Shown piece by piece: positions 3,790 to 60,935 of a stretch of 64,000 nt of DNA (position 1 is its first letter; each line of letters begins with the position of its first letter). Both the position numbers and the translations under genes were made by a program. The DNA is taken from assembly GCA_964599485.1 (NCBI GenBank), contig CAZRGL010000002.1:2780-66779 (forward strand). Direction: 5' to 3'. The DNA comes from an uncultured Polyangiaceae bacterium. GTDB taxonomy: Bacteria; Myxococcota_A; Polyangia; Polyangiales; Polyangiaceae. Under the pieces are notes generated by a model, which was not told the origin of the DNA, searched no databases, and saw nothing but the letters and a program-made list of their open reading frames with translations.

Positions 3790-6700
3790 TCAGCCCTGGG
3801 TCGTGCGCCGCAGCCACATGCAGGAGGAAGCTGCGGCTGCGGGGTTGTCTTGAGGGCCGAGCCAGAGATCGCAACGGAGCCAGTGTTGGTCCTGCTCGGT
3901 GAGCTGCAAGGCGCCGCGCAGCTGGGTTCCGCTCGCGTCCGAGAGTTGTTTGGTGAACGTGTCGAGCCAGTATTGCAACCAGGCGCGGCAAGCGTCGGTA
4001 TCGTCCCGGCGACTCGAGCCGAGGTGCATCAATCGAAGATGTTGCGCCAACCGGCCCATTGGGAAGGTGGACCTGAACGAGCGCGCGCCGCTGCGCGTGT
4101 CGGCTTCTGTGGCGATCTGGTCGATGTCGAGCGCCATCAGCCCTCTGCTCTCGAACCCGCGCAGCAGCGATTGCGCTGCTGCAATCGCCCCGCTGCTCTG
4201 GATTGGCGCAGGTTGTCGTCCACTGACGGCGCCTTCGACGTAGGGCATTTTCTCTTCGATGGCGTAGGGCTCGCGCAGGCTGAGCTGCTCGCCAAGCAGG
4301 GCGACATGGCTGCTGGCAGGATCGGCGAAGAAGGCGCGCCAACCGTTTGATGGCGCAGTCTGCAACAGTCGGCGGGCTTCGGGTGTCGTTCCGGCGATGA
4401 GCCCGGCTTGGCTCTGGCGGGCAATGGTGGCGGCCGCCGTGAGCAAGGCGGGATCATCGATCGGATCGGCCATGACGATGGCGCCATAGGGAGTTGATTG
4501 GGCGTAGGCCTGCATCAGCGCCCGGCGCAGGGCCCCGTTGTTTATGACAGCGGCTGGCCCTTTGCTCCCGCAAGCCAAGAGATGGAGGCGACAATCAGCG
4601 TCGGGCATTGCGGCCTGAAGGCTTGCCAATGATCGCCAGCAGCGCTCATGTTGGCGCATGCGGGGATCGAACAGGATCTGATCGAGTGCTTTGGCTACGC
4701 CTCGGGCGATCGTCTGCTTGGCCCAGACGACTTCTTCGCGGTCGATCTTGTTGCGGCCGTGGGAAACGAGCACGTGCAACATGCCTGCGAGGGTGCCGCG
4801 CGCTACGGCGTAGGCCGGGTGATCGGTTGGCACCAGGCGGCTAATGATTGCGCGTCCGTACACTTCGGCGATCTCGTTGGCAGCGCTCAGCGCCGTTGAG
4901 CCCGCTGGCTGGCCAGCTCGCAGCTTGTCGCCCAGCCGCGGCAATAGTGCGGCAAGCTGGGTGGCGAAGTCGTCGATGATGGTCTCCCACCAGCCGAGGC
5001 CGATGTAGCTGAAGTACATCTTGGCCGTGTCGCCGAGTTGCTGGGCCAGCTTGCCGGGGGCCAAGTCTGCAAGACAGGTTGGCGCAAAGAGCTCGTTGCT
5101 CGCAGGTAGCGCGAGCGCTTCGTTTGCCGGCATTGAGAACTGCAGTTGTGGCTTCAGGGTGGCCATTGCGCTGTCGACGTCGGTGACCACGAGTGGCTGC
5201 TCGGTGGCGGCTGCGCCGCTGTGGGCCGTATCGATGGCGCCGAGCACCAGAAGACTCAATGGCAACGGCTCGCGCCTACCGAGTGATTGTCCGGCGCGGT
5301 GTTGCTCGAGTTGCAACCGCATTGGTAGGCGGCTCAGTTCGAAGGCGCGGGGCGGGGCGGCTGCTCGTTGGTGCTGCAACTTGACCAGCAAGCGCGTAAT
5401 CCCGATGCGCAACATGGCTCCGTCCTCGAGGGTTGCCTCCCCCCGGACGGGTTGACCGTCTAGCTCGATGCCAATCCTGCTACCGGCGTCGATGACCTTG
5501 GCGCCGCGTTCATCCACCGACAACATAGCGTGATGGTGCGCCACTAGCGGTCTGCGAAGGACTATGTCGCAATCCTGTGCGCGGCCGATCAATCGGCGCG
5601 GTCCGGCGCCAACCTCGAAGATTCGGTCTGTGGCCTCTTCACGCAATTGCAGGACGGTGCTGCCGGGTTGTTCCGGCTGCTCGGCGAAGGCTTTCGGATC
5701 GAGCAGACGTTGCAGCGCATCTTCGAGCTGCTTGGGTGTGTGCCTTCCGAAGCCCAGCCAGCCCAGGCGGCGGCCGAGGTGTTCCAACTCCGCGTTCGTC
5801 CAGCTCGGGATGCCAATGCGGATGAGCGGGTCGTGCTCAGCGGGACGCTGCGCGCGCAAGAACAGCTTCAGCCAGGGCGCGGCGCGGCGCAGCGAGGTGT
5901 CCGATGGCAAGACGCGCTCGTGCTCGACGTGCCACAGCCTCAAGTCGCCGTCCCGTCCGCCTGAGGCGAGCAGACGTCCGTCGGGAGTAAACGCCAGTGA
6001 CAAGATCACATTGTTGTGGCTGCCGAGGCGCACCAACTTGCCCGGGGTGTTCAGGGCGTGCAGGTGCACCCCGCCTCGACTGTCGCCGATCGCGACCAAG
6101 CCGCCGTCGTCGCTCAGCGCCAGGGTGCTGGCTCGCTCGATGGTAAGATCGCCTTTCACAACGCCCGCTTCAGCGTCGATCGTGATGAGTGTGCTGTTGC
6201 CGTCCAGCATTGCGGTCATGGAAGCACTAGGGGTGATCCGCAGCTGCTCGACATCGGCCGCTGCGTCGCTGAGCTGCCGCAGCTCTTGGCGCGCGCCGAG
6301 CACCCAAAGCGATAGCGCTCCGTCGCCAGCAACAACAGCCATCGCGTCGGCCTCCGCGGCGGGGGCCATCGCTTGGACGGCGCCGCAACCAACAGGATCG
6401 AGCCAGCGTTCGGCGGCGGTATCCCAGATGGTGATCCCCATTTGGCCGGCGACGAATAGCAACCGTCCGTCGCGTGACCACCTCAGCGCGCTTGGGTGTC
6501 GCTTGCCAGCCAACAGCTGGCTGTGGCCCTGATCGATACGCCAGATGCGCACATTGCCGCCGCATGCAGTGGCCACGACGCTTGCATCGGCAGCGATCGC
6601 GGCCGCTTCGAAGGGGCGCTTCGGCTCGACGACGTGCATCACCGCCCTCTGTTTGCCTTCCATCGTGTCGTGACGACGGACCTCAATCAGGTTGCGACCG

Positions 6701-9700
6701 GCGTCGTACATCACACTCGTGACCGAATCGCCATCAGGCGCCAGGCCCACCGCTTGAACCGGGCCGCCGAGATCGCGAATCGAGCGCCCCGCCCAGCTGC
6801 TGCGCAACACGCCTCGAGTCGTGCGATGGGCAATGCGGGTGGCAAGCGCTTGGGCGTCGCGGTGGCGGCGATAACCAGGTACGGCAGTGGTCTCGGCCAG
6901 ATAGAGCAGCGCCCCTGGCAAGTCGCCTAGCTTCAGGGCGCCTTCGGTACGTCCGAGCGCAGCACGGAAACGTTGGTGCTGCAGCTCGAGGACATCACTA
7001 TGGCGCGGTCGTGCCACCATGATGGGCGCAGCCGGGGCGTCGTGCAGGACCTGGACGAGGTGCAGATGTCCGCCGGCGGCCACCAGCACAGGATCGGCAT
7101 CTGCGCAGGCGATTGCATGCACATCGTCGAGCGGCGCGGCCGTCCGCAAACAGCGGCCGCTGTCCACGTGCCACAGCCGCAGCGTGCCGCTGCTGGACCA
7201 GGAAAGGACGTGACGACCGTCGTCACTCATGACAGCCCGGCGCGGCGCTGGTTCTTCGAGGCGGCGCACCAACGATCCGCTGACTGCGTCCCAGATGCTC
7301 AACCGGTAGTGGGATCGCTCGGCGTCCCATCCGCCCGACACAGCGCGACGCGCGTCCGCGGTCAGCGCCACCCAGTCTACGGCCAACTCATGGCGTAGCG
7401 TTCGGGTTACTTTGCCGTCGAGCAGTCGCAGCGTCACCGTGGCGTCGTCACTCGCGCTGGCCAGCAGGCGGCCATCGGCCATTGCGGTCACGCTGTTGAC
7501 CCGTCCGCCGTGCGTGCCGAGGTCCTGGTTCTGACCGGTGTCTACGTCGATCAGCACGATGCGCTTACCGACCGCAGCAGCCAGTTGGTGCTCGTTGCAC
7601 AGCGCCAATCCGGTTACACCGGGCATGTTGATGCGCTGCGAATCGGTTGCCGCGGTCTTCCACACGATGATGGACTCAGCGTTGGCTGCTGCTGCTACCG
7701 AGCCGTTCGTGCTCAAGGCGACGTGCTGTGCGTTGATCTTGGCGCCCTGCAGACTGGTGCCACCGGCCAGCATCCAGACCCGTACGCCATCATGGTGCGC
7801 GCTGGCCACGACACGCTCGTCGCGGCTGGTCGAAAGTGCGTGAGGCGGGCTGGGCAGCTCGGTCAGACGCTCGAGCTGGAAGCCAGCTTTGGTCCCATGA
7901 TAGGGCCCTGCCACCCGCTTCATGGTTGCCTCGGTGCGCGCCGTGCCCGTCAAGGCCCGCACACAACATGCTTGGGCTCGCTTGCGGTCGGCGCGTTCGT
8001 AATGAAGCCAAGCTTGCATCAAATGGGCGCGCCACTCCATTGCGTGCGAGCTGGTTGCCGCACGCATCCGCTCCACCGCTTGCTCGTCAGTGATGTCGCC
8101 GTTTCGCCATTCGATCAGGGCCAAGTTGTAGCTCGCCTCGAGATGATGCGGCTCGGCATCGAGTGCTTGTTTCCACGCTGATAGGGCTTCGCTGTTGCGT
8201 CCGATGTCGAGCATCGATGCGCCACGGTTGTTGTGCACCACCGCTTGCTCCTCGTGGGCTGCTGGATCGGGTCGCGCCTGACGCGCACCGCTGAGCTCGA
8301 CGTAGATGCTGCGGAGTGTGGCAGCGATCTCCAACATGTCGGTTGGTCGTTCGTTGGGGTCCCGCGCAAAACAATGCTGGAGCAGCCCCACCAGCCGCGG
8401 CGGCATCATTGGGATGCGCTCGTCCCAGCCGCCGTCATCGAGGTATTGGCGCAGCGCATGTGGCGCGAGCACGCCGCTCATCCAGCGAATCTCGCCGGTG
8501 AACATGTGAAGGACCGTCACAGCCCAGGACCAAACGTCCGTGCGCCGGGTCAGCTCGACGTCCTTCTTTCGGGCCGCTGCGGCTTGCTCTGGCGAGCAGA
8601 AAACCGGCGTCATGCCCGCATAGCCGGCCATCAGCGTCTTGTGACGGCCGCCCTTGCTCGACTCGGCTGCCGGTTCTGCCAGACGCGTGGTTTTCGCCAA
8701 GCCGAAGTCGGTCACCTTGGCGATGCCAGTCTTGGTGAGCATCACGTTGGCCGGCTTCATGTCCTGATGAATGAGGCCGTGGCGGTGCGCGTGATGCAGC
8801 CCGTAGCTCATCTGCAACGCAACATCGATCATCGAGGCCAGCAGCTGCTGGTCGGTCTTGCTCTTGGCCCGCCGGAATTTGCCTTTGTCGATCCAATCAG
8901 CCAGGCTTCCGCCGTCGACCAGCTCGGCGAAAAGCCAAGGTGCGCCAGAGCGCATGCGCACGTAGTAGCAGTCGACCGTGTGCGGATAGACGCCCAGCCG
9001 GGACCACGCTTCGGCCTCTTCGACGAAACCTTCCACCCCGCCTCGCTCGAGCAGCTCGACGCGCGGGATCTTCAGTGCCAGGTCGATCCCCCAACCAAGG
9101 TGGTGCACGCGGTACACCTTGCCCATCCCGCCGGCGCCAAGCGGCTCGATGACTTCGTATAGATGCCAGTCGCCCCCGTCGTCGTCGACGATTTGCTTGC
9201 GGCCTGCTCCGCCGCCGGCGCTGCCGAGCGACGATGACGGAGCCTGTTCTTTGGGGGGCTCTAACGCTCGGGGTTGGGCGGCGTCTTTTCGTTTCTCGTG
9301 TTCAGCAGCTGGTTCGGCAGCGTTCTTGGGGGGGCGTGTCTCTTCTGCGGCCCGCGCTCGTTTCCTTGCTCTGTGCTCAGCCGCTCGGTCGGCGCTGGCC
9401 TCCCGCCCCGCTTCTGGACCAAAACCCAGCTGCTCCCGACGGCGGAACAAGTAGTTCAGCAGCAGGTTGTTGCGGGTGTCACCGCAGTCGGGCCTGAGCA
9501 CGCAAACCAGCATGAAGTCGCGATCCGCGTCGTCATACCGCCTGTTGCGTGACAGCAGTACGCCTCGATTGATCAGCGCTTGCCAGTAGTCCGGTTGCAA
9601 GCTGATGGCCCGGTCGTAGTCCTCGTAGCTTTGCTCGCTGTCGCGTCCGATTCGCTCGGCCACGTGGCCCCGATAGCACCAGTATGCCGCGCGCTGGGGC

Positions 9701-10671
9701 GCCTGGGTGATCAGCTCGTCGAGGATCTCCCAAGCGGCCTGCATCTGTCCTGCGCGCGCGCAGGCATCAGCCCGTGCATAGTCGGGGTGGTCGATGCCTT
9801 CGACGGGGCTTTCTTTGGCGGGCAACAGCTCGGTGACAGCCTGCAGCACTTCGACGCGGGCTCCAGGAAGATCCCGGAAATGCTGCAATGCGCGCCGAAC
9901 TCCTCGCGCCTCCTGCTCCGTGCTCGGCACCACGCCCAATACCGAGCACGCCTGACCAGCGATCACGGCCATGTACAAGTCCTGAGACGCACACAAGCCA
10001 CGCAGCACCTGCTCGCGATCGTTGCGCTGCCGTGTCAGCAGGGCCTCCACCTTCTTGACCTGATCGCTGCCATCCGAACCGAGGTATCCACAACTTGGAG
10101 CCAGCAGTGTGCGTACGACGTCGTAGCCGGCCGCACCCAGCTCGCGGTCGTCGCCGATTGCCGTCCGCAGATGCTCCGCTACCAACCAGTCGATGATGCG
10201 TTCGACAGCAGGCCGATGGCGAATGCGATCATCGAGCCAAGGTTGACCGAGTGTGACCGCTTCGAGGCCGTAGCGAGGCGCGAGCGCCATGCCAAAGATC
10301 GGAGACAGGGCCGCAGTCGGCGGCTGTTGGCTGAGCATACGGCCGAATGCCTCGTCCAAGTTGCTGACGAAGCCGGGTTCTTGCACGCTGATCAAGCGCT
10401 CGTCGATATCGAGTAGCGAGAAGCCTGACTCGCGGTAGCCGCGGGTCAGCAGGTTTCGCAAATAGGGGCGCGCCCAGCTGACCAGCGGGCGGAACGACGG
10501 CACCCGGCGAACCGTGCGCAGTAGCAGCTCGATGGCCCATAGCGATCCGAAGCTCCCGTCGAGGGCGAAGGGTTTTCCGAGGCGGCGCTCGTGCTCGGCG
10601 CGCTCATCGGGCGACAGCCTGCCGATTTGCTTGCTCGAGCCGCTCTTGTCGCCAGTGTCGGGCCCCGCCAT
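3790..10671 (-). CDS. Giant multidomain protein (2293 aa): N-terminal unknown/TPR region, Ser/Thr kinase, TPR, multiple WD40 repeats, FHA, TssB(VipA)-like segment, divergent TssC(VipB)-like domain
   Basis: The start is set at ATG 10671 (MAGPDTGDK), 4 nt after the stop of the upstream TssC-like gene.
- Kinase (about 8330-9170): LGAGGMGKVY, ALKIP, HQDMKPANVML, DFGLAK, SPEQ.
- FHA (about 5400-5605): IGRAQDCDIVLRRPLVAHHHAMLSVDERGAKVIDAGSRIGIELDG.
- C-terminal tail (3793-5322): PLPLSLLVLGAIDT...QPLVVTDVDSAMATLKPQLQFSMP is TssB-like. ALDQILFDPRMRQHERCWRSLASL, YGAIVMADPIDDPALLTAAATIA and WLQYWLDTF...LRCDLWLGP are colinear with the neighbouring TssC-like protein. Confidence 0.85.
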   Translation of the reverse strand: MAGPDTGDKSGSSKQIGRLSPDERAEHERRLGKPFALDGSFGSLWAIELLLRTVRRVPSFRPLVSWARPYLRNLLTRGYRESGFSLLDIDERLISVQEPGFVSNLDEAFGRMLSQQPPTAALSPIFGMALAPRYGLEAVTLGQPWLDDRIRHRPAVERIIDWLVAEHLRTAIGDDRELGAAGYDVVRTLLAPSCGYLGSDGSDQVKKVEALLTRQRNDREQVLRGLCASQDLYMAVIAGQACSVLGVVPSTEQEARGVRRALQHFRDLPGARVEVLQAVTELLPAKESPVEGIDHPDYARADACARAGQMQAAWEILDELITQAPQRAAYWCYRGHVAERIGRDSEQSYEDYDRAISLQPDYWQALINRGVLLSRNRRYDDADRDFMLVCVLRPDCGDTRNNLLLNYLFRRREQLGFGPEAGREASADRAAEHRARKRARAAEETRPPKNAAEPAAEHEKRKDAAQPRALEPPKEQAPSSSLGSAGGGAGRKQIVDDDGGDWHLYEVIEPLGAGGMGKVYRVHHLGWGIDLALKIPRVELLERGGVEGFVEEAEAWSRLGVYPHTVDCYYVRMRSGAPWLFAELVDGGSLADWIDKGKFRRAKSKTDQQLLASMIDVALQMSYGLHHAHRHGLIHQDMKPANVMLTKTGIAKVTDFGLAKTTRLAEPAAESSKGGRHKTLMAGYAGMTPVFCSPEQAAAARKKDVELTRRTDVWSWAVTVLHMFTGEIRWMSGVLAPHALRQYLDDGGWDERIPMMPPRLVGLLQHCFARDPNERPTDMLEIAATLRSIYVELSGARQARPDPAAHEEQAVVHNNRGASMLDIGRNSEALSAWKQALDAEPHHLEASYNLALIEWRNGDITDEQAVERMRAATSSHAMEWRAHLMQAWLHYERADRKRAQACCVRALTGTARTEATMKRVAGPYHGTKAGFQLERLTELPSPPHALSTSRDERVVASAHHDGVRVWMLAGGTSLQGAKINAQHVALSTNGSVAAAANAESIIVWKTAATDSQRINMPGVTGLALCNEHQLAAAVGKRIVLIDVDTGQNQDLGTHGGRVNSVTAMADGRLLASASDDATVTLRLLDGKVTRTLRHELAVDWVALTADARRAVSGGWDAERSHYRLSIWDAVSGSLVRRLEEPAPRRAVMSDDGRHVLSWSSSGTLRLWHVDSGRCLRTAAPLDDVHAIACADADPVLVAAGGHLHLVQVLHDAPAAPIMVARPRHSDVLELQHQRFRAALGRTEGALKLGDLPGALLYLAETTAVPGYRRHRDAQALATRIAHRTTRGVLRSSWAGRSIRDLGGPVQAVGLAPDGDSVTSVMYDAGRNLIEVRRHDTMEGKQRAVMHVVEPKRPFEAAAIAADASVVATACGGNVRIWRIDQGHSQLLAGKRHPSALRWSRDGRLLFVAGQMGITIWDTAAERWLDPVGCGAVQAMAPAAEADAMAVVAGDGALSLWVLGARQELRQLSDAAADVEQLRITPSASMTAMLDGNSTLITIDAEAGVVKGDLTIERASTLALSDDGGLVAIGDSRGGVHLHALNTPGKLVRLGSHNNVILSLAFTPDGRLLASGGRDGDLRLWHVEHERVLPSDTSLRRAAPWLKLFLRAQRPAEHDPLIRIGIPSWTNAELEHLGRRLGWLGFGRHTPKQLEDALQRLLDPKAFAEQPEQPGSTVLQLREEATDRIFEVGAGPRRLIGRAQDCDIVLRRPLVAHHHAMLSVDERGAKVIDAGSRIGIELDGQPVRGEATLEDGAMLRIGITRLLVKLQHQRAAAPPRAFELSRLPMRLQLEQHRAGQSLGRREPLPLSLLVLGAIDTAHSGAAATEQPLVVTDVDSAMATLKPQLQFSMPANEALALPASNELFAPTCLADLAPGKLAQQLGDTAKMYFSYIGLGWWETIIDDFATQLAALLPRLGDKLRAGQPAGSTALSAANEIAEVYGRAIISRLVPTDHPAYAVARGTLAGMLHVLVSHGRNKIDREEVVWAKQTIARGVAKALDQILFDPRMRQHERCWRSLASLQAAMPDADCRLHLLACGSKGPAAVINNGALRRALMQAYAQSTPYGAIVMADPIDDPALLTAAATIARQSQAGLIAGTTPEARRLLQTAPSNGWRAFFADPASSHVALLGEQLSLREPYAIEEKMPYVEGAVSGRQPAPIQSSGAIAAAQSLLRGFESRGLMALDIDQIATEADTRSGARSFRSTFPMGRLAQHLRLMHLGSSRRDDTDACRAWLQYWLDTFTKQLSDASGTQLRGALQLTEQDQHWLRCDLWLGPQDNPAAAASSCMWLRRTTQG

Positions 10672-10675
10672 GCGG

Positions 10676-11992
10676 CTAATCCTTTTGGAGCTTTCCTTCG
10701 AGGGTGATGGTGAGCGGGCCGCCGCGCTCGGCCCAGTTGGGCTTGAGCGCGAGCTCGAAACGATAGCCGCGCGGGCCCGTGTCCTGGACCTCGATGTGGG
10801 CTTCGTAGAAGGGACGCCAACCGATGGCGAACCCACCTGGCTGGCGAGCGCCGACAACATAGTCAGAGAGCCATCGCTGCAGCCCGGTGCTCACCGAGAA
10901 GCGGTCCTTCCAGCAACCGATGTTCTCGCGGTGCAACACTTTGATCATTTGCCCGATGCGCGTTGCGACCAACAAGCTCGGCAGCTCGGCGTTGCGTGGA
11001 TCGTTAGCGGTCGAGGGGTCGAGCAGGCAGGGTGTCTCGGCCACGAGCGCGCCTTCGCCTTCGGTGCTGGGCTTCAGTGTCATGATGCCCAAGTGCGCCA
11101 GGGCAGCACGTTGCTCGTCAGCGAGCACTGCTTCGAGCGGAGTGATGTCCTGCAATTCGGGAGCGAAGGGCACCGCGCCCGGCAACCGAAGTCCCCAGCC
11201 TGTCTCCTCGAAGCTCGCCGCCAACCGTATCCCCACAGCAAGCATGGCGCTGCCCCAGAGCAGGTCCTCTGGGCAGTCAATGCGCTCGTCGTGCCCGTCG
11301 TCATCAGCGGTGTAGGGCATTCGCAGCAGCACCCGGCCGAGAACCAAAGCGCAATGACGAGCCTCTGGTTTCTGCCGCAGCGCTTGCCATCGCACGCGGG
11401 CGGCTTCGTGCACTTCGAGCTGTTGTTGTTCGCCGATGACCCCGGCGTCTCCCAGTTCATGGACCGGCTCGGCTCCAACCAAAACGGGGTCCACAGTCGC
11501 CACAAAAGGAGCGTGGGCCGCTGCTGCTGTAGTGAAGCATTCGGAAAGCAGCCCCATGTCTTGGGGGGAAGGACCGAAGGTGAAGTCCGCCATGACCAAG
11601 CCGAAGGGGGTGCCGCCAAAACTGCCGAACTCACCGGTGTGGAGAAGGCTGTACAAGCCGGCTCTTTCGATGCGTGGTGCGTCCTCGAAGTCCATCAGCA
11701 GATCTTCTTGCGAGATGCTCAGCATCTGGACACGAACTCGGCGATCCTCGGTTGCAACAGTGCTCAGCCAATGCAGCCCGCGCCAACGCGCTTCGAGAGC
11801 CTGCAGGGTGGGGTGGTGCAGGATGAGATCGAGCTGCCGAGCGATACGTCGATCCAGACTGGCGATAGCGGCGGCTACGTCGTCGAAGGCTTCGTGGGCT
11901 TCGCGGACGCCTTCGAGCAAGGCCCCCACCAGCACGTGCTCGGCCAGCGCGAGGTCGCTGAGTGTCGGTTGGTCCTTGTGTCGCTTGTCCAT
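10676..11992 (-). CDS. tssC: T6SS contractile-sheath large-subunit (TssC/VipB/EvpB)-like protein
   Basis: Motifs typical of TssC:
- RQLDLILHHPTLQALEARWRGLHWL
- LSISQEDLLMDF
- GEFGSFGGTPFGLVMADFTF
- AAAAHAPFVAT
- RWQALRQKPEARHCALVLGRVLLRMPY
- LQRWLSDYVV
- YRFELALKPNW
The ATG at 11992 overlaps the upstream stop (TGATG). A TTG at 11995 is an alternative start. Confidence 0.8.
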   Translation of the reverse strand: MDKRHKDQPTLSDLALAEHVLVGALLEGVREAHEAFDDVAAAIASLDRRIARQLDLILHHPTLQALEARWRGLHWLSTVATEDRRVRVQMLSISQEDLLMDFEDAPRIERAGLYSLLHTGEFGSFGGTPFGLVMADFTFGPSPQDMGLLSECFTTAAAAHAPFVATVDPVLVGAEPVHELGDAGVIGEQQQLEVHEAARVRWQALRQKPEARHCALVLGRVLLRMPYTADDDGHDERIDCPEDLLWGSAMLAVGIRLAASFEETGWGLRLPGAVPFAPELQDITPLEAVLADEQRAALAHLGIMTLKPSTEGEGALVAETPCLLDPSTANDPRNAELPSLLVATRIGQMIKVLHRENIGCWKDRFSVSTGLQRWLSDYVVGARQPGGFAIGWRPFYEAHIEVQDTGPRGYRFELALKPNWAERGGPLTITLEGKLQKD

Positions 11993-13170
11993 CAACCCAT
12001 GCCGATGGCGGTTTCGAGGTGCGTGCGAATCGCGCGACGTAGACGCACGGACATATCGGTGAACGCTTCGCGATCGGGTAAGCCCACTTCGATGGTCGCG
12101 ACCGCGCCCCAGAGGTGGCTCGGGAGTGCCGAAATCATCCTCGGGTAGAACTCAGCGCTCCTCTTGGGCTCCGTCGGGGAGTACGCCAGCAACCACAAGA
12201 ACATCGTTGCCACCGCTTCGAAGAGGGCCCCCTGCGCCGGCCCATGCCGCTCGGCGAGTGAGGCAGCGATCGTCTTGCCTGGCTCCATGACCGGGTACAT
12301 CAAGCTGTCGCTCACATCCTTGCCGAGATCTCCCGTCAGCGGTGCGAATTCAGGCAAGGAGATGCCGAGGGCCGTCGTGATTTCGTTGGCAAGAGTCAAC
12401 TGCGCTTTGGTTGCGACCTGCATTTCTGGATTGCATCGCACGCTCGATAGCGTCGACAGACACTGGGCCAGATGATTGATGAGTAGGCGGGCGCCGGCGT
12501 TGCTGTCGGGGATGGCCGTGAGATCTACACTTGGTATCTGTACGCGCTCAGCCTGGCTTGAGGCAGCATCGTCCTGGGCCTCGAGGTTGGGCGCTCCGGT
12601 CGAAACAGCGTCTTGTCGTCTGACAACAGGGTCTTGTTTCCTGAGGAAGTCATAAGCTTCGCCGTACGCGTCGAAGATCAGCTTGCTTGCGTTGCGACCT
12701 GCCTCGGCGACGATTTCGTCGATTCGTTTCTGAAACGACTTGGGCAATCCGCCAGCCGCAGCACTGCCGCGCAGCGCTTCGGCGATGGCGTCGAGCATTT
12801 CACCCCCGCCCGAGCCGACGACGTCGACGAAACAGAGCTTGAGAGCGCACTCGAGCAACGCCAGGTGATCATTGCCGAGCTTGGCGACGGGCTGCTTCAA
12901 TGCTGGGCCAGCCGTCGTGAGCACGTACTTGAGCGCCAGAGCTGACCCTCGGCCGTGGTCGCTCGTGGGCTCGAACAGCGGCGGAAGCTCGGCGCCGATG
13001 ACGTCGCCCAGGTGTACGGCTTTTGCAAACCAAACGCCGCTGAGCTCGAGCTCGGAACGGCCGTGGAAACTGGCTGCCCAAGCGGTCCATTGGGCCAAAC
13101 GCCAAACCAGCGCTCGGCTGCTGATCCCCATGGTCTCGAGCTTGGCCGACAGGATGCGATCGTTCATCAT
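11992..13170 (-). CDS. Hypothetical protein (392 aa), co-oriented and translationally coupled with the TssC-like gene
   Basis: A complete ORF (MMNDRILSAKLETMG...) whose stop overlaps the next gene's start (TGATG at 11990-11994). I recognise no domain. Confidence 0.6.
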   Translation of the reverse strand: MMNDRILSAKLETMGISSRALVWRLAQWTAWAASFHGRSELELSGVWFAKAVHLGDVIGAELPPLFEPTSDHGRGSALALKYVLTTAGPALKQPVAKLGNDHLALLECALKLCFVDVVGSGGGEMLDAIAEALRGSAAAGGLPKSFQKRIDEIVAEAGRNASKLIFDAYGEAYDFLRKQDPVVRRQDAVSTGAPNLEAQDDAASSQAERVQIPSVDLTAIPDSNAGARLLINHLAQCLSTLSSVRCNPEMQVATKAQLTLANEITTALGISLPEFAPLTGDLGKDVSDSLMYPVMEPGKTIAASLAERHGPAQGALFEAVATMFLWLLAYSPTEPKRSAEFYPRMISALPSHLWGAVATIEVGLPDREAFTDMSVRLRRAIRTHLETAIGMG

Positions 13171-13218
13171 GATTCGGCCTCTCGCTGACCAGCAGACGAG
13201 ACTGAGGCGAACAACAGC

Positions 13219-15330
13219 TCAACCATAGAGCCAGCCTCGTTGATGGGCGTGATTTCGAAACGAGTCAGCAAGCTTGCGGTAGGCGCCGGCGATGGCACTG
13301 AGGCGCGTCCGCGACCAACGTCCGGCGGGCTGCTCGTCGCGGGCTCTTTTTCCCATTGCGGTGAAGAAAGCGTCATCTGGCATCGTTTCTTGGCCAGCAG
13401 GTATGAACTTGATCACCTCATCCATGAACGCTGCCGCTCGCTCGATGACGTTGAGCGCCACGATGCCTTCGTCTCGGTCGAGGCCGTCCAGCGACGCGGG
13501 CGTCTGTTTGGCGAATCCTTCGGCGAAACTGAAGAACTGCCCCGCGTCGATCAGCTCCGAAGGCGTATCTCCGGCGCTGTACTGGATGGGGCCATCGCCG
13601 CTCGTTGCCGCCATGTCGGCTTTGCTGATTCGAAACGTGAATGTTCTGGTTGCGGCGCCCTCATTGCGGCATTCGTACTGCACCACCACGTCGGCCTCCT
13701 CGGTGGTGATGGATTGTTTGCGACCCTGGACTGGGTAGTTGCGAAGGTTGAGATAGACGCTGCATTCGGCCAGTGACCGGGCGCGCAAGGGTTGGGTCGT
13801 GCCGTCAGCGTCGTCTGGCTCGGCCTCGTCCGCCTCTAGCTCGACGCGCGCTCGACCCATGACCTTGCCGTCTTGGACCATCATCGGTTGGGCAAACAAG
13901 CCTTGATCACCGCTGGCGCGGAACACCTTGTCTGCACTGTTCGCCAAGCGCACCACGGCCGCCCCATTCTGCATGCTGCAAGCGAGCACCACCCCGCGAA
14001 CGGGGATCGCGACGAGCAAGACCTTCGAGTCGAGCTTTTGGTGCAACACCTTCAATGCGCTCGGCACGAGCAACGCCTCGGTCGCGTGCTCACCGTGTAG
14101 GCTCGCCACACGTGGCGGATCGCCAACTACTTCGAGTCGCGGCGATTGCTTTTCGGCGAGCATGCGTGCCCCTTGGTCGACGAGCTCGTCGAAGCTGCGC
14201 GTGCCCAAGGTTTTTGCCGTCGCAAGATGGTGACCGTTGGCTGTCTCGGCAGCCAAGCAAACCATGGGGCTGACGATTGGGTGGGTTGGATCGGTGGGTG
14301 GGGCGAGCGGTCGAGTCAGCACAGAAGCCGTCAAGCTGGGATGATCTTGGCGCAGGATGTGAGGCTGATAGTCGCTGATCACGGCGCTGTTCAACGCAGC
14401 TCGACTTACCGGTGCGGCTGTGGCCAGCTGATCGTGGATGACTGCGGAGCTTGCCGACGCGATGCTGGCAGGGTCAGGCTTGGCAGGGTCAGGCTTGGCG
14501 GTGTCGGGTTTGGCAGCGTCTGGTTTGAGGGAGCCGATGGAAATGGGGCCACCCGGTTGCTGGACGGGCGCGCTGTTGGCTGGTTGGGAGGCTGGTCTGT
14601 CCACCCCCTTGAGCGTCGCGTCACTGAAGGCATGCGCTACCGCCTTGGGCGGGATGGGACCGGCACAGTTGAAGACGATCCCGTCGATGGGCGCGATGCG
14701 TAACTGCTCGAACAGCGTCTTGCCGTCCACTTTGGTGTGCGGCGGAACCGAGGCGCCATGCCGGGCGCGAAAAGCCTGGTAGGTGTCCTCGGCGGTGAAC
14801 ACGGCGGCGAGGCGGCGGCCCTGGTTGTCGGGCGCCATCATCAGCTGACTGCCCTGCCAGCAGAAGCGGTAGCCCGGGTAGTTGCGCAGCAGCTCGAACT
14901 GATTGTCGCGCTTGGAGTTGCCTTGCAGAATCTCTTCGACTCGCACCGCCTGGCCGAATTCCGCAAGCAAAGGCAGATCCTGAGCGTAGAGCGCCATGCC
15001 ATGGGGACTGGCCAAATCGAGGCCCACGCCGCGCGCTCCGCCCGGGATGTTACGGGCTAAGGATCCGCCCGCCGTGACGAAGAAGTTGTCGCCAATGGTC
15101 AGCTTGTTGGCCTGTGCGTACGCATCCATGGCCTGTTTGCTGGAGAAGGCGCACACCCACCACTCGCCCGCCGAGCCGGGGAACATCCACAGCCCCGACG
15201 ACCCATCGGCGGCGATACGGCTGGGCACGTGCCAGCTCGGGTGCTGCACCAGGTGACGAAACGCTTCCGAGTGGGAGCTACTGCCCTGCTTGTGGGCCGC
15301 CATGGCGTGCACGATTTGGGGTTCGGTCAT
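13219..15330 (-). CDS. Hypothetical protein (703 aa) with two N-terminal SseB-like repeats and a (KPDxA)n linker
   Basis: This is the real 5' part of the 1489-aa track ORF. The start is ATG 15330 (MTEPQIVHAMAAHKQG). Two similar modules (WHVPSRIAADGSSGLWMFPGSAGEWWVCAFSSKQAMDAY and YRFCWQGSQLMMAPDNQGRRLAAVFTAEDTYQAF) are reminiscent of the SseB family. The SseB assignment is tentative. Confidence 0.65.
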   Translation of the reverse strand: MTEPQIVHAMAAHKQGSSSHSEAFRHLVQHPSWHVPSRIAADGSSGLWMFPGSAGEWWVCAFSSKQAMDAYAQANKLTIGDNFFVTAGGSLARNIPGGARGVGLDLASPHGMALYAQDLPLLAEFGQAVRVEEILQGNSKRDNQFELLRNYPGYRFCWQGSQLMMAPDNQGRRLAAVFTAEDTYQAFRARHGASVPPHTKVDGKTLFEQLRIAPIDGIVFNCAGPIPPKAVAHAFSDATLKGVDRPASQPANSAPVQQPGGPISIGSLKPDAAKPDTAKPDPAKPDPASIASASSAVIHDQLATAAPVSRAALNSAVISDYQPHILRQDHPSLTASVLTRPLAPPTDPTHPIVSPMVCLAAETANGHHLATAKTLGTRSFDELVDQGARMLAEKQSPRLEVVGDPPRVASLHGEHATEALLVPSALKVLHQKLDSKVLLVAIPVRGVVLACSMQNGAAVVRLANSADKVFRASGDQGLFAQPMMVQDGKVMGRARVELEADEAEPDDADGTTQPLRARSLAECSVYLNLRNYPVQGRKQSITTEEADVVVQYECRNEGAATRTFTFRISKADMAATSGDGPIQYSAGDTPSELIDAGQFFSFAEGFAKQTPASLDGLDRDEGIVALNVIERAAAFMDEVIKFIPAGQETMPDDAFFTAMGKRARDEQPAGRWSRTRLSAIAGAYRKLADSFRNHAHQRGWLYG
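14467..14526. repeat. 15-bp in-frame tandem repeat x4 (two perfect copies, two degenerate)
   Basis: ggcagggtcaggctt occurs twice, followed by ggcggtgtcgggttt and ggcagcgtctggttt. On the minus strand these encode KPDAAKPDTAKPDPAKPDPA. Confidence 0.8.
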
Positions 15331-15432
15331 CAAGCGCGCTCCGTTGGTGGTTCTACCAGTCTGGGGCGCAGGATTGTGCCTTGTTATCGGTCTAGTAGAC
15401 GCCAGCTCGAGTTTCGCCAACCCTTGGCGAAC
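15331..15432. promoter_or_regulatory. Divergent intergenic region, presumed to hold the promoters for both arms of the sheath/ClpV/kinase locus
   Basis: This is a 102-nt gap between the minus-strand start at 15330 and the plus-strand start at 15433. I could not recognise a specific -35/-10 or -24/-12 element. Confidence 0.3.
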
Positions 15433-18400
15433 ATGAGTGCCTACTTGAGGATCGCCGCCAGCGAGAAAGGGGGGGCCGCGGGCCAGATCGCACGCTTTGA
15501 TGAGGAAGGCGGCGTCGCGGTGCTTGCGGATGGGACCGGCGGAGCGGCAGGGGAGGCCATGGCTCGGGCTGCAGTCGAACCGGCGTTGAAGACGCTCCTG
15601 GCCGAGGGCTCGGTCGAGAAAGCCTTCGCGTCTGCCCACCAAGCCGCTTGCACGCAGAGTGAGGATGAAGGCGCTGGCGCGAGCTTCATCGCGGCTCAGA
15701 TTGACCGGACCGGCACGTTGGTGGTCGGTCATCTCGGCAATGTGCGCGTATACATCGCGCGCAAGACGAACAGGCGCCGGGGTCTTCCGAAACCGCCGGC
15801 ACCGCTCTTCTGTCCCCCTGTTCAGGTCGGCTCGGTCAAGCCGATCGAGACGGCCATGAGCATGGTCTGCCTCAGTCGCGATCACAGCGCGGTTTGCGAT
15901 ATGGTCGAGGGCGGGCATTTGTCGGCGGAGGATGGGCGCAAGCATCCGCTGCGCGGGCGGGTGAGCAAGGGCTTGCGGGCCGGTCCGCTGACGCCTCCAA
16001 CGGTGACGCACATGCGGCTGTTTCCGGATGATCGCGTGCTGCTCTGCTCGGATGGGCTGTGGGATGCAGTGAGCGATCGCGACATGCTTGCTGCGCTGGC
16101 TGAGCACCATTTTGCAGACGACGCTTGTGAGGCATTGGCCGAGCGGGCAGGGAGCAAGTGCTCCTTTGCGGCCGTAGTCATCGATTGTTTTCCCGATCGC
16201 GAGCGCGACGAAGCGCGACGCAATTTGCAGCGCGGACACAAAGCGCAACGCAAGAAACGGGCGAGCAAGAAATCCGGCCGCGAAAAACAGAAGCGTCCCA
16301 GCAGCGAGCGACCCCGTAGCGAGCAGCCCCGTAGCAACAAGCGCCGCAGCAGTGAGCCGCCGAAAAACGGCGACATCATTCGGCGAATGGGGCGCAATCT
16401 CACCGCGCTGGCCATAGCTGGCAAGCTCGATCCGGTCATCGGGCGAAAGCGTGAGGTGCAGCAGCTCGCACAAGCACTCGTGGCGCGGCGCAAAGCCAAC
16501 GCGGTTCTCATCGGTCCGCCCGGCGTAGGCAAGACCGCCATCGTCGAAGGGCTGGCCTTGCAAATGGCAACTGGTGGACTGGGTGATCGTTTTGCCGACA
16601 AGCGTATCGTCGAGATGTCGATGGGCGCGCTGGTCGCAGGCACCAAATATCGCGGCCAGTTCGAAGAGCGACTGCAGGAAGTCATCAGGATTGCCGAGGA
16701 TGATCCAGAGCTGGTCATCTTCATGGACGAGCTGCACACGGCCATGGGCGCCGGTGCGACTAGCGGTAGCGCCACCGATGCTGCGGATTTGCTCAAGCCG
16801 GCGCTGTCGCGCGGCAGCATGCGGCTCATCGGCGCCACTACGACCGAGGAGTACCAGAAGTACATCGCCCGCGACGCTGCCTTCGAACGCAGATTCATCG
16901 TCATCGACGTCAAAGAGCCTTCGGTCGGGCACACCATCGAGATTCTCCAGGGGCTGCGCCCTTCCTTCGAGAAGCACTACCAAGTGCAAATCGTCGATGA
17001 GGCCTTCGAGGCCGCGGCAACGCTTTCCAAGCGCTACATTCCGGGGCGGTACTTGCCCGACAAAGCAATCGATCTGATCGATCGCGCCTGCGCCCGTCTG
17101 CTGGTGCCGCTCACGCCCACCCCGGGCGACGGTAGTACGCTTCGGCGTGATCACATCGTCAAGCTCGTGGCCGACATGTGCGATGTGGACATCGAGTTGA
17201 TCGGCCGCGATGTGCGCGAAGCACGGGAGCGGGTGGGCGAGCTGCTGAGCTACCTCACCGCGCGCCTCTTCGGGCAAGACGCGGCGATGGGTGTGGTGGC
17301 CCGGCAGCTCAAGCGCGCTTACGGCGGACTCAAGGATCCGAAACGTCCCATCGCTTCGTTCCTGTTTGCGGGACCGACCGGTGTCGGCAAGACCGAGACC
17401 GCCAAGGTCGTTTCCGAGTTCTTGTTCGGGGACCGCGATCGGGTTCTGCGGATCGACATGTCGGAATACGAGAGCCGCTGGGCCGTCTCGCGGCTGATTG
17501 GGGCACCGCCGGGCTACATCGGTCACGACGAGGAAGGGCAGCTGACGGGTCCCATGCTCCGGCAAGGGGCGCGGGTCGTGCTCTTCGACGAAATCGAAAA
17601 AGCCCATCCCGACGTGCTGCTGGTGTTGCTGCAGATTCTCGACGAGGGGCGGCTGACCGACTCGCACGGCCGTGTTGCTTCCTTTCACGAAGCGGTCATC
17701 GTCATGACCTCCAACCTGCTGCAGTCTGGCCCGGTTGCGCGCAAAGCCAAGCAGCTGGGCTTCGCATTGCCCAAGAAGGGCGCGCAGTCGGAAGAGGCCG
17801 AGGAACAGGTCGAGGATGACAGCGCGGCGCGCAGCGAGCTCGCCAAACAGCTGCGCCCCGAGCTAGTCGGTCGAATCGGCGCCGTGGTGACCTTCTCGTC
17901 GCTTTCGCCCGAGGCGGCGAAAGCCATCGTGAACAAATGTTGCAACAGCGCCCTGCAGCGACTGCAAGCGCAAGGCGTGGCGCTGCAGTTGCCGGATGGT
18001 TTCCAACAGCGTGTGCTCGAACGTTTGGGCGATCTGCGCTTCGGGGCGCGCATGGTCGAGCGTTTGGTCGACGAAGAGGTCGGCAAGCTGCTCGATCGGT
18101 CCCAGCCTAGTGCTGGCCGGTCGGATGCCAGCATGGGAGCGAGCATGCACGCCAGCATGCGAGGCTCAGCACGAAACGACGTGGCCATGTTGGCGCTCGA
18201 GCTGCCGGAGGGGGTGGATGCCGACGAGGCCAAGCTTCATGCGTTGGTCGCCAAGGTGTGCATCGGCGCGCAAGCTGCCCAGGTGCGCCATGTGGATGCG
18301 TGTGAGGGCCGCGTCGTCGTTCTCGCTGCGACCTTGCGCGCTGCTCTGGCCATCGCGCGGCGCCATGACAGCTTGGATGGCAAAGGGCTGCGACGCTTGG

Positions 18401-18648
18401 TGCATCGGGGCCGGGTGCAGCTCGACGAACAAGGCAATCCTCGCGGCGTCGGCTTGCATGTGCTCGAGATGCTTCGCGGTGTGCTTGCTGAGCATCGAGA
18501 GACGGCGGGCCAGTTGGTGCTCTCTTCAGCTGCTCACGAGGCGCTCGACGCCGACGCGCGCGCCGGCTTCGTGCCGCTCGAGAGCGAGACCTTGCGGGCA
18601 ATGGGTAGCGACATCAGCTTGTGGACGGACGCAGGGAGGACGGCGTGA
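15433..18648 (+). CDS. PP2C (PPM) phosphatase fused to a ClpV/ClpA-type double AAA+ unfoldase, with an unknown C-terminal extension of about 250 aa
   Basis: Start at ATG 15433 (MSAYLRIAASEKGG).
- PP2C: VLADGTGGAAGEAMA, VGHLGNVRVY, LLCSDGLWDAV.
- AAA+ D1: LDPVIGRKREV, GPPGVGKTAIVEGLA, KYRGQFEERL, VIFMDELH, LIGATTTEEY.
- AAA+ D2: GQDAAM, FAGPTGVGKTE, RIDMSEY, LIGAPPGYIGH, VVLFDEIEKAHPDV, ILDEGRLTD.
I see no long coiled-coil M domain between D1 and D2. Confidence 0.85.
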   Translation: MSAYLRIAASEKGGAAGQIARFDEEGGVAVLADGTGGAAGEAMARAAVEPALKTLLAEGSVEKAFASAHQAACTQSEDEGAGASFIAAQIDRTGTLVVGHLGNVRVYIARKTNRRRGLPKPPAPLFCPPVQVGSVKPIETAMSMVCLSRDHSAVCDMVEGGHLSAEDGRKHPLRGRVSKGLRAGPLTPPTVTHMRLFPDDRVLLCSDGLWDAVSDRDMLAALAEHHFADDACEALAERAGSKCSFAAVVIDCFPDRERDEARRNLQRGHKAQRKKRASKKSGREKQKRPSSERPRSEQPRSNKRRSSEPPKNGDIIRRMGRNLTALAIAGKLDPVIGRKREVQQLAQALVARRKANAVLIGPPGVGKTAIVEGLALQMATGGLGDRFADKRIVEMSMGALVAGTKYRGQFEERLQEVIRIAEDDPELVIFMDELHTAMGAGATSGSATDAADLLKPALSRGSMRLIGATTTEEYQKYIARDAAFERRFIVIDVKEPSVGHTIEILQGLRPSFEKHYQVQIVDEAFEAAATLSKRYIPGRYLPDKAIDLIDRACARLLVPLTPTPGDGSTLRRDHIVKLVADMCDVDIELIGRDVREARERVGELLSYLTARLFGQDAAMGVVARQLKRAYGGLKDPKRPIASFLFAGPTGVGKTETAKVVSEFLFGDRDRVLRIDMSEYESRWAVSRLIGAPPGYIGHDEEGQLTGPMLRQGARVVLFDEIEKAHPDVLLVLLQILDEGRLTDSHGRVASFHEAVIVMTSNLLQSGPVARKAKQLGFALPKKGAQSEEAEEQVEDDSAARSELAKQLRPELVGRIGAVVTFSSLSPEAAKAIVNKCCNSALQRLQAQGVALQLPDGFQQRVLERLGDLRFGARMVERLVDEEVGKLLDRSQPSAGRSDASMGASMHASMRGSARNDVAMLALELPEGVDADEAKLHALVAKVCIGAQAAQVRHVDACEGRVVVLAATLRAALAIARRHDSLDGKGLRRLVHRGRVQLDEQGNPRGVGLHVLEMLRGVLAEHRETAGQLVLSSAAHEALDADARAGFVPLESETLRAMGSDISLWTDAGRTA

Positions 18649-19946
18649 AGGTCACGCTCACAGTCATCGAAGGGCCCAATTTGGGCCGCGAATTCGCCTA
18701 CGAGCAACGGGATCGCTTTCTGGTGGGGCGGACGCCAGCGGCGCATCTGTGCGTCTCACGAGATCGCTTCTTTTCGCGGCATCATTTCTTCGTCGAGGTC
18801 AATCCGCCCAACGTCTACCTGGTCGATTTACACAGCACCAACGGCACCAGCGTCAACAGTCGCAAGAACAAGGTCGAGGAGGCCACGCTCGAGCATGGCG
18901 ACATCATCATCGGGGGCGAAACGAAGCTCCGGGTGACCATCGACGACGGCGTGGACGAGTCGGCTGCCGCTGAGGCAAACGAGTCGCGCGAGCAGGTCTG
19001 TTGTCTGAAGTGTGGCAAACATGCCGAACGCGAACGGGCGCGCTCGAGCTCGGAGTCCGTGACCTTCATTTGCCAAGGTTGCCAGGAGAACCTGCGCGGC
19101 CAGCCGATCTTGCCGCAGGGTTATCGTGTGGTTCGTGAGCTCGGTCGCGGCAGCATGGGAAGCGTGTATCTGGCCGAGGACGGTGCCGGCGCGCAGCGGG
19201 CGATCAAGCTCGTCATGCCGAATGCGGCCTTGTCGGCTAAGGTGCGCAACCAGTTCCTCGAACAATCCAGAGCGCAAGCGCGCCTCGACCACCCGCGCAT
19301 CGTGCGCGTCTACGGCGTCGAGCAGCCGCGCGAGGGGGTGTTCTGCGTCGTGATGGAGCACATCGATGGACAGGCGCTCTCGAAACTCATCGCCAATCAG
19401 AACAAGCTCCCAGCTCACAAGGTCGTGCTGATTGCAGCCCAGCTCCTCGAAGGGCTCGACTATGCCCACGGGCGCGCGATGGTTCATCAGAACATCAAGC
19501 CCGCCAACATTCTGCTCGCTCCCGATCGGGGCGAAGCGTCGGGCGGCCTCGCTGTCAAGCTGGCCGATTTCGGCCTGGCGCAGACCTACGAGCTGACCGG
19601 CGCGAGCGGTTTTGCGCGCCTGGACGAAGTGGACGAGTCGCTCGGCTACAAGGCCCCTGAGCAGATCATCGACTTTCGCGGCGTCGATCCGAGGTCGGAT
19701 CTGTACGCTGTTGCGGCGGTCGGCTACCGGATGCTCTGCGGTGAATTGCCCTACGCGCTCGATGCGGGCCGCGATCCCTTCTTGGCGCTGCTCGAAGACG
19801 AAATCGTGCCGCTGAGGAAGCGAGATCGGACAGTGGATTCTGCGTTGGCCGCTGTGATCGAGCGGGGCCTGGCCCGACGCCCCGCCGACCGCTACAGCTC
19901 TGCGGCGAAGATGCGTGAAGCACTGTTGGCTGCCGCGCTCCGCTGA
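18621..19946 (+). CDS. FHA domain, CxxC...CxxC zinc ribbon and a Ser/Thr kinase-like domain in which the catalytic Asp is replaced (HQN): predicted pseudokinase
   Basis: - FHA: FLVGRTPAAHLCVSRDRFFSRHHFFVEVNPPNVYLVDLHSTNGTSVN.
- Zn ribbon: CCLKCGK...FICQGCQ.
- Kinase: GRGSMGSVYLA, AIKLV, MVHQNIKPANILL (aac codon at 19491-19493), DFGLAQ, APEQ.
An alternative start, GTG 18645, overlaps the upstream stop (GTGA). Confidence 0.85.
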   Translation: MDGRREDGVKVTLTVIEGPNLGREFAYEQRDRFLVGRTPAAHLCVSRDRFFSRHHFFVEVNPPNVYLVDLHSTNGTSVNSRKNKVEEATLEHGDIIIGGETKLRVTIDDGVDESAAAEANESREQVCCLKCGKHAERERARSSSESVTFICQGCQENLRGQPILPQGYRVVRELGRGSMGSVYLAEDGAGAQRAIKLVMPNAALSAKVRNQFLEQSRAQARLDHPRIVRVYGVEQPREGVFCVVMEHIDGQALSKLIANQNKLPAHKVVLIAAQLLEGLDYAHGRAMVHQNIKPANILLAPDRGEASGGLAVKLADFGLAQTYELTGASGFARLDEVDESLGYKAPEQIIDFRGVDPRSDLYAVAAVGYRMLCGELPYALDAGRDPFLALLEDEIVPLRKRDRTVDSALAAVIERGLARRPADRYSSAAKMREALLAAALR

Positions 19947-48130: not shown

Positions 48131-48158
48131 CCCGGGTCGTGTCGCACGCCTTCACTGA

Positions 48159-48335
48159 CATGATCCGTCGAGCATCTACGACCTCGATGCCAGGTGGAAG
48201 CTCACCATTGGTGGCGCAGGTGCAACGGAATGGGAAGGGCTCGCGGTCGTACCCAATAACCCCAATCGGGTCATTCTAGGTCGCGAGCGTGGCGGGACAC
48301 GCGACCTATATTGGATTGAGCTGCCCGACCAGTGA
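48159..48335 (+). pseudogene. Possible C-terminal gene remnant with no start codon
   Basis: The frame opens right after a TGA at 48156-48158 and reads HDPSSIYDLDARWKLTIGGAGATEWEGLAVVPNNPNRVILGRERGGTRDLYWIELPDQ*. It is protein-like (an EGLAV...LYWIEL beta-propeller-type ending), but there is no ATG/GTG/TTG near its beginning. Confidence 0.3.
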
Positions 48336-60898: not shown

Positions 60899-60935
60899 TC
60901 AAGAGGGTAGCACGCGCGGAGTCGACCTCGAGCGG

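Follow-up and report, generated by a model that had tools for sequence, protein, structure and literature searches.

The locus described here raises the question of what a sequence resembling the contractile sheath of type VI secretion systems (T6SS) is doing at the end of a giant signalling protein. It lies in a stretch of 64,000 nucleotides from an uncultured Polyangiaceae bacterium (GenBank assembly GCA_964599485.1, contig CAZRGL010000002.1, positions 2,780 to 66,779 of the forward strand); this whole stretch is called the window below. An initial annotation of the window had proposed that FHA, TssB-like and TssC-like domains are fused to the C-terminus of a protein containing a kinase domain and WD40 repeats. 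In T6SS and pyocin sheaths, an N-terminal arm (of TssB) and C-terminal strands (of TssC) are added to the sheet of a neighbouring subunit and so connect the subunits, and to our knowledge TssB/TssC-type sheath proteins have been described only as parts of a T6SS. The analysis shows that the giant ends in ~530 residues that are homologous to the protomer of the T6SS sheath, diverged from it and contained in a single chain, in which the arm and strands of TssB are followed by a helical connector and then by the body and C-terminal strands of TssC.

The giant gene lies on the minus strand. The coordinates and reading frame of its open reading frame (ORF; 3790..10860) were confirmed, and its first 63 codons overlap the upstream TssC-like gene. 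The most likely start is Met64 (nt 10671), which is positioned 4 nt past the stop of the TssC-like gene and gives a gene of 2,293 aa at 3790..10671 (minus strand). Using Pfam and NCBIfam to define the order of the domains, the protein reads, from its N-terminus, as an N-domain, TPR, a Ser/Thr kinase, TPR, two WD40 regions and FHA; the TssB-like and TssC-like segments then complete it. At the default threshold of these two collections, the ~530 residues that come after FHA have no match.

The TssC/VipB-like segment of this tail (about 3850..4809, minus strand), which includes the C-terminal strands (LRCDLWL), is recognised by BLASTP, by profiles, and by AlphaFold2 (AF2) modelling followed by Foldseek, while its score with Pfam VipB is at about the cut-off. 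Pfam VipB (PF05943) matches the last 336 aa of the giant with an E-value of 2.2e-6 and 27.4 bits, against a cut-off of 27; with the last 536 aa the score is 25.1 bits against the same cut-off. PF18945 (VipB_2) has no match in the tail, and TIGR03355 gives 18.6 bits against a cut-off of 271.5. By BLASTP, the tail aligns with the neighbouring TssC-like protein at E=7e-6, with 26% identity over 220 aa. The initial annotation had taken about 300 aa of the tail to be colinear with this neighbour on the basis of four pairs of motifs and had suggested a pairwise profile alignment as a check. Three of the four pairs are contained in the BLASTP alignment; the fourth (WLQYWLD/LRCDLWL) lies inside the profile alignment made with hhalign, in which a profile of three tails (from the giant and the two relatives described below) matches the neighbour's TssC-like family with a probability of 91% and E=1e-6 and is colinear over TssC residues 40-420 of 439. 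Positions 182-416 of the three-tail profile also match solved TssC structures (9n4v_A, 7e-8; 5urw_1B, 5e-7), and in the Protein Data Bank (PDB) no unrelated protein matches this profile better than E=0.3. A phmmer search of the PDB with the single window tail gives no match.

The TssB/VipA-like segment (about 5020..5322, minus strand) begins with the arm strand MRLQLEQ, after which come LPLSLLVLG, VDSAMATLKP and LADLAPGKL; the GDFGG motif of its relatives reads GAIDT in the window tail. It is joined to the TssC-like segment by a helical connector (4810..5019, minus strand), which takes the place of sheath domain 3 and has within it a YF.Y.GLGWW stretch specific to the family. That the sequence following FHA has a TssB/VipA layout, as first proposed, is borne out by positions 43-127 of the three-tail profile, which match solved TssB/VipA structures (5urw_1A, 3.8e-5; 5myu_a, 7e-4; 3j9g_A, 8.5e-4; range to 9e-4). 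A hidden Markov model (HMM) of TssB, built from the N-termini of three free-standing TssB–TssC fusions, matches the tail of the giant's orthologue at E=6e-8 and the window tail at E=0.007. Among all six-frame ORFs of at least 40 aa from the window and from the orthologous contig, the two giant tails are its only matches. The fused TssB-like sequence is thus, as had been claimed, the only one found in the window, and no separate tssB precedes the stand-alone tssC, whose upstream gene encodes a 397-aa protein without a family match. Compared with a canonical TssB, then, this segment resides inside the giant rather than in a separate small protein encoded upstream of tssC.

Modelling of the tail by AF2, using an alignment of seven sequences, reached a predicted local distance difference test score (pLDDT) of 82.3 and a predicted template modelling score (pTM) of 0.82. 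When this model was compared with the PDB using Foldseek, another check that had been suggested at the outset, the top matches were large subunits of T6SS sheaths (5urx_1B, 4.3e-6; 5myu, 1.5e-5; 9n4v_A, 4.4e-4), with target-normalised template modelling scores of 0.51-0.53 for the three; an R-pyocin sheath ranks next. The tail has kept the arm strand as well as the strands at its C-terminus. The tail thus shares its order of elements, its profile and its fold with the T6SS sheath proteins TssB/TssC (VipA/VipB; Myxococcus xanthus 5urw/5urx, Vibrio cholerae 3j9g). It differs from them in being one chain instead of two, in carrying ~1,760 residues of signalling domains at its N-terminal side, in missing or barely reaching the curated cut-offs, and in having no Hcp, VgrG, baseplate or membrane-complex genes found near it. 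In addition, none of the three tails contains a complete TssC core: each lacks ~60 of its conserved residues (TssC ~275-335).

Several results weigh against such an assignment. Pfam VipA (PF05591) does not match the window tail even at E<=10, and the tail of the orthologue scores 19.5 bits, below the cut-off of 24. The match of the TssB HMM to the window tail is weak when that tail is taken alone. Moreover, the match in fold is not independent of the match in sequence, because the alignment given to AF2 contained TssC-type sequences. Short motif matches and borderline scores for the window sequence alone are what one would point to in arguing that the similarity is due to chance or composition, or that the giant ORF is an artefact of assembly or a frameshift. 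Either explanation is scarcely credible, and both are considered ruled out: independent methods agree, the 2,293-aa protein with its start at Met64 is called in four independent metagenome assemblies (in which the genes are in the same order and the TssC-like protein, P0007, is identical), and orthologues are present in two other metagenomes. The similarity between the tail and the sheath is well beyond chance. Neither of the outcomes that the initial annotation had named as grounds for giving up the fusion was observed, since similarity to VipA/VipB is present in both profile and fold, and the giant is found as one gene in the four assemblies, in a 2,246-aa orthologue and in a relative that continues from WD40 into the tail.

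These relatives come from a complete HMMER search through 1.84 billion representative proteins, in which only two true relatives of the tail were found, together with a free-standing protein (P0003) that is described below. One (P0001; 2,246 aa), encoded on a contig labelled Polyangiaceae (L001, from ENA ERZ24842448), is 57% identical to the giant from end to end and has the same domain order. The other (P0002, on L005) is a fragment at a contig end, continuous from WD40 into the tail. The search for homologues of the fusion that had been proposed thus yielded one protein with the whole architecture and one with its WD40-to-tail part. The family is very rare, with three lineages, all metagenomic, among the 1.84 billion proteins. 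When the tail was used to query a word index of 5.8 billion proteins, no match was returned, and no relative was found in collections of genome contigs and metagenome contigs queried with alignments of the tail and of a 703-aa protein from the same locus.

Another explanation of the tail is that it is a diverged remnant, serving only as a protein-binding or dimerisation module of a signalling kinase, with no strand exchange and no cycle of assembly, and that the nearby TssC-like and Clp genes are unrelated to it or only loosely related in function. The tail is indeed the fastest-evolving part of the giant (42-50% identity, versus 67-80% in the N-terminal half), and the lost ~60 core residues, the GDFGG motif lost in the window and the curated family cut-offs that are barely reached or missed would all suit a remnant. 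However, three lineages have preserved a full-length tail in which many Trp, Cys, Pro and Gly residues are invariant, and the arm strand and C-terminal strands are still present. In addition, both lineages for which there is context show synteny of the giant with the TssC-like gene, the PP2C–Clp gene and two unassigned genes. We consider a remnant of this kind unlikely.

As to where the tail came from, its closest relatives in sequence are free-standing proteins in which TssB and TssC are fused. The tail profile gives 74 bits, in one continuous alignment, to such a protein of 495 aa (P0003, which itself matches VipA at 6e-13 and VipB at 7e-47), whereas its score with the TssC-like protein encoded next to the giant is 17 bits; this speaks against an origin of the tail by local duplication, which is rejected. 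Further one-chain TssB–TssC proteins are P0005, P0006 and P0009, and together with P0003 the set spans 495-627 aa. Like the tail, they have TssB followed by TssC in one polypeptide; unlike the giant, they have no kinase, WD40 or FHA, and the segment of the core that is absent from the tail is present in them. A fusion of TssB to TssC through the outer domain brings back the one-chain arrangement that phage and pyocin sheaths have. The simplest history would be one in which a single-chain sheath protein was captured by a kinase–WD40 gene. Some features of the free-standing proteins may be recorded here. In P0003 and P0005 the C-terminal VipB_2 part is apparently absent. In P0009 (544 aa, from a 2.3-kb ENA contig), ~125 TssB residues are followed directly by the conserved QLDAILHAPEFQALE with which the TssC body starts, and the C-terminal helices of TssB and the N-terminal region of TssC (sheath domain 3) are apparently absent.

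The remainder of the giant is a signalling platform of considerable size. Its N-terminal domain (aa 19-303; 9763..10617, minus strand), the fold of which is not assigned, is 68% identical to that of the orthologue and is among the better conserved parts of the protein; an AF2 model made from two sequences reached a pLDDT of only 38. The Hanks-type Ser/Thr kinase domain (aa 505-777; 8341..9159, minus strand; Pfam Pkinase, 1e-31) keeps, on reading its sequence, the Gly-rich loop, the Lys (in LALK), HQD..N, DFG and SPE. No transmembrane-like segment came up when the giant was scanned in a simple way for hydrophobic stretches of 20 residues, and the kinase is therefore probably cytoplasmic; from its motifs, it is probably also active and of the non-RD type. 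The WD40 beta-propeller region (5884..7674, minus strand), defined by Pfam/NCBIfam and by sequence, consists of two propeller-sized blocks.

The FHA domain (aa 1690-1763; 5383..5604, minus strand; Pfam FHA, 7e-11) lies ahead of the tail where the initial annotation had placed it (about 5400-5605). An alignment with the two other FHA domains of the window, both of which are canonical, shows that it keeps GR and the His, and that the Ser of SxxH is replaced by Ala and the Asn of NG by Ile. The same pattern is seen in the orthologue, which has Ala and Leu at these two positions. Nor is the domain a constant part of the family: it is present in the window giant and in P0001, as the description of the fusion had it, but between the WD40 region and the tail of P0002 there is none. 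Because of the replacement of two contact residues and the lack of FHA in P0002, it is doubtful that the FHA domain of the giant would read phosphothreonine.

The genes that accompany the giant bear directly on what the tail might do. A conserved set, comprising an SseB-like protein, a 397-aa protein, a TssC-like protein without a TssB partner and the giant, is found in two lineages (the window and L001), where its synteny is kept at 47-57% identity. The stand-alone TssC-like gene (10676..11992, minus strand; 438-439 aa) matches VipB at 1e-60 and VipB_2 at 2e-15, and scores 254 bits with TIGR03355, below the cut-off of 271.5. The solved structure that it matches best is the TssC of the Myxococcus xanthus T6SS (PDB 5urw; 3e-61), and it is only 26-34% identical to any other TssC found. 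At its N-terminus it is ~25-50 residues shorter than canonical TssC, its residue 40 aligning with residue 67 of M. xanthus TssC. Its start is overlapped by the end of the gene for the conserved 397-aa protein (11992..13185, minus strand), upstream of which lies the gene for the conserved 703-aa protein (13219..15330, minus strand); in the latter, a linker rich in Pro and Ala separates an N-terminal half that is SseB-like from a C-terminal half without an assignment. Profiles of the 703-aa and 397-aa proteins gave no usable match in the PDB. A longer ORF of 1,489 aa (13219..17688, minus strand) was rejected as a gene: the SseB-like gene (13219..15330) accounts for its last 703 aa, and the N-terminal half is read from the strand opposite to the PP2C–Clp gene. 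In L001, the TssC-containing protein is larger (1,103 aa) and has an N-terminal extension that contains a copy of the giant's N-domain (L001 6698..7567, plus strand). This shared domain hints that the two sheath-like proteins may be brought to a common partner.

Across an intergenic region of 102 bp (15331..15432), and divergent from the conserved set in both lineages, lies a gene for a fusion of a PP2C phosphatase to a double AAA+ unfoldase of the ClpB/ClpA/ClpV type (15433..18648, plus strand; 1,071 aa). Its first ~240 residues are PP2C (Stp1-type, 6e-19) and keep the DGTGG and SDGLWD motifs; this domain and a basic, low-complexity linker, which together make up the N-terminal ~280 aa, stand where a Clp protein usually has its N-domain. 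The orthologous locus encodes the same protein, with 51% identity in the N-terminal part. ClpV disassembles contracted sheaths, and its N-domain recognises TssC. Like ClpV/TssH, PP2C–Clp is a double AAA+ Hsp100 protein whose gene adjoins sheath-type genes, but it differs from ClpV/TssH in this replacement of the N-domain and in its higher score with ClpB. The shortened N-terminus of the TssC-like protein may go together with the loss of the ClpV-type N-domain in its Clp neighbour. The 3' end of the PP2C–Clp gene is overlapped by a gene for an FHA–Ser/Thr kinase (18621..19946, plus strand; 441 aa), noted in the window.

Is this, then, a T6SS locus? Pfam scans of the large ORFs over the 64 kb found no gene for a tube, spike, baseplate or membrane complex, and returned instead kinases, an FHA–sigma-54 activator, acyl-CoA dehydrogenases, FGE-sulfatase proteins and similar. 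A phmmer search of all six-frame ORFs of the window with metagenomic Hcp, TssA/B/E/F/G/K/L/M and VgrG, which uses single sequences and is of limited sensitivity, likewise found none. PHROGs assigned no tail, tube or baseplate family to any protein of the gene set, and PADLOC gave only generic kinase and AAA+ matches for it. By contrast, the nearest other relatives of the TssC-like protein (26-34% identity) are encoded in the standard order tssB-tssC-hcp-tssE-tssF-tssG. Judged by its gene content, the locus is not a T6SS cluster. In all, the window contains at least six kinase genes and an FHA–sigma-54 activator (27994..29328), as would suit a genome of myxobacterial type, and there are two pairs (47003..50443 and 59420..62177) in which a FGE-sulfatase (SUMF1-like) protein is encoded beside a Ser/Thr kinase.

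The gene set could still serve a canonical T6SS encoded elsewhere in the genome, as an accessory regulator: the tail would dock on an end of a TssBC sheath, or co-assemble with it, and would carry the kinase and the WD40 platform to that system, and PP2C–Clp would be ClpV and PppA in one. A kinase, a phosphatase and an FHA protein constitute the minimal threonine-phosphorylation pathway of canonical T6SS (PMC13584744). As with PpkA/TagE, PppA/TagG and Fha1/TagH of the Pseudomonas aeruginosa H1-T6SS, a Hanks-type kinase, PP2C and FHA are encoded together in the window, so that all three parts of the pathway are present along with sheath-like and Clp proteins. Other observations also favour a regulator of this kind. 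The solved structure closest to the TssC-like protein is that of a Myxococcus xanthus T6SS sheath; the genome has been seen only in part; and three of the free-standing relatives of the tail are encoded beside T6SS genes, P0003 (L006 1864..3351) adjoining TssK, P0005 (L002 10001..11536) adjoining VgrG with DUF4123, and P0006 (L004 6143..8026) adjoining DUF2169 with Rhs. On the other hand, no T6SS core gene is found in the 64 kb of the window or in 27 kb of the orthologous contig, and the set has a TssC-like gene of its own, which is distant from every other TssC found. In addition, the Clp protein has no ClpV-type N-domain, and the kinase of the giant, unlike PpkA, has neither a membrane anchor nor a periplasmic sensor and is not surrounded by a T6SS cluster. 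Finally, compared with the PpkA/PppA/Fha1 pathway, the signalling domains in the window are fused to a sheath-like protomer and to an unfoldase. On balance, we regard a role as an accessory regulator as a possibility, if a somewhat unlikely one.

The reading that we prefer, which is tentative and falls a little short of an even chance, is that the gene set encodes a sheath-derived cytoplasmic assembly that is gated by phosphorylation and reversed by Clp, and that it is not a secretion machine. In such a process, the tail and the TssC-like protein would be held to each other by strand exchange, as the subunits of a sheath are, and such contacts are plausible because the tail keeps its arm strand and C-terminal strands. 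The product would be a limited oligomer, a ring, a cap or a small lattice. A long, closed sheath wrapped around a tube is unlikely, because the arm would carry ~190 kDa, an arm is absent from the free TssC-like protein, and ~60 core residues are missing. The two kinases and the PP2C domain would set the assembly, and the Clp unfoldase would dismantle it, as ClpV does with contracted sheaths. A stronger version, which we think unlikely as it stands, is that of a self-contained, tube-less descendant of the T6SS, in which a lattice or ring of the kinase-tethered single-chain protomer and the TssB-less TssC is assembled by phosphorylation and dismantled by the phosphatase–unfoldase, and is used for cytoplasmic signalling, scaffolding or mechanical work and not for secretion.

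Some of the evidence pulls away from a phosphorylation-gated assembly of this type. The FHA domain of the giant is without the two residues that usually contact phosphothreonine. PP2C–Clp scores higher as ClpB (594 bits) than as ClpV (519 bits), both values being far below the curated cut-offs (885 for the ClpV model, TIGR03345, which is not reached). A canonical T6SS may lie elsewhere, because what has been seen is limited to the 64 kb and the 27 kb of orthologous contig. Divergent tube or baseplate proteins could also be hidden in the 703-aa and 397-aa proteins, which were approached by sequence methods only.

No kinase–sheath fusion, natural TssB–TssC fusion or gene set of this type was found in the literature searched, the coverage of which is incomplete; to this extent, the impression of the initial annotation that a sheath protomer tethered to a kinase, WD40 and FHA is not known still stands. 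In the window, a kinase platform of eukaryote-like type has a sheath protomer attached to it, and an unfoldase and a phosphatase of its own are encoded alongside. As natural single-chain proteins, the TssB–TssC fusions may also be of use in the study or engineering of sheaths. If the proteins of the window do assemble, they would indicate that the T6SS sheath and unfoldase can be reused as a pair, on their own and under the control of phosphorylation, and they would be a naturally occurring case of a physical connection between kinase, FHA, phosphatase, sheath and unfoldase. Such a linkage would bear on how threonine phosphorylation starts the assembly of the T6SS, and a sheath machine that works without a tube would, if true, be categorically new.

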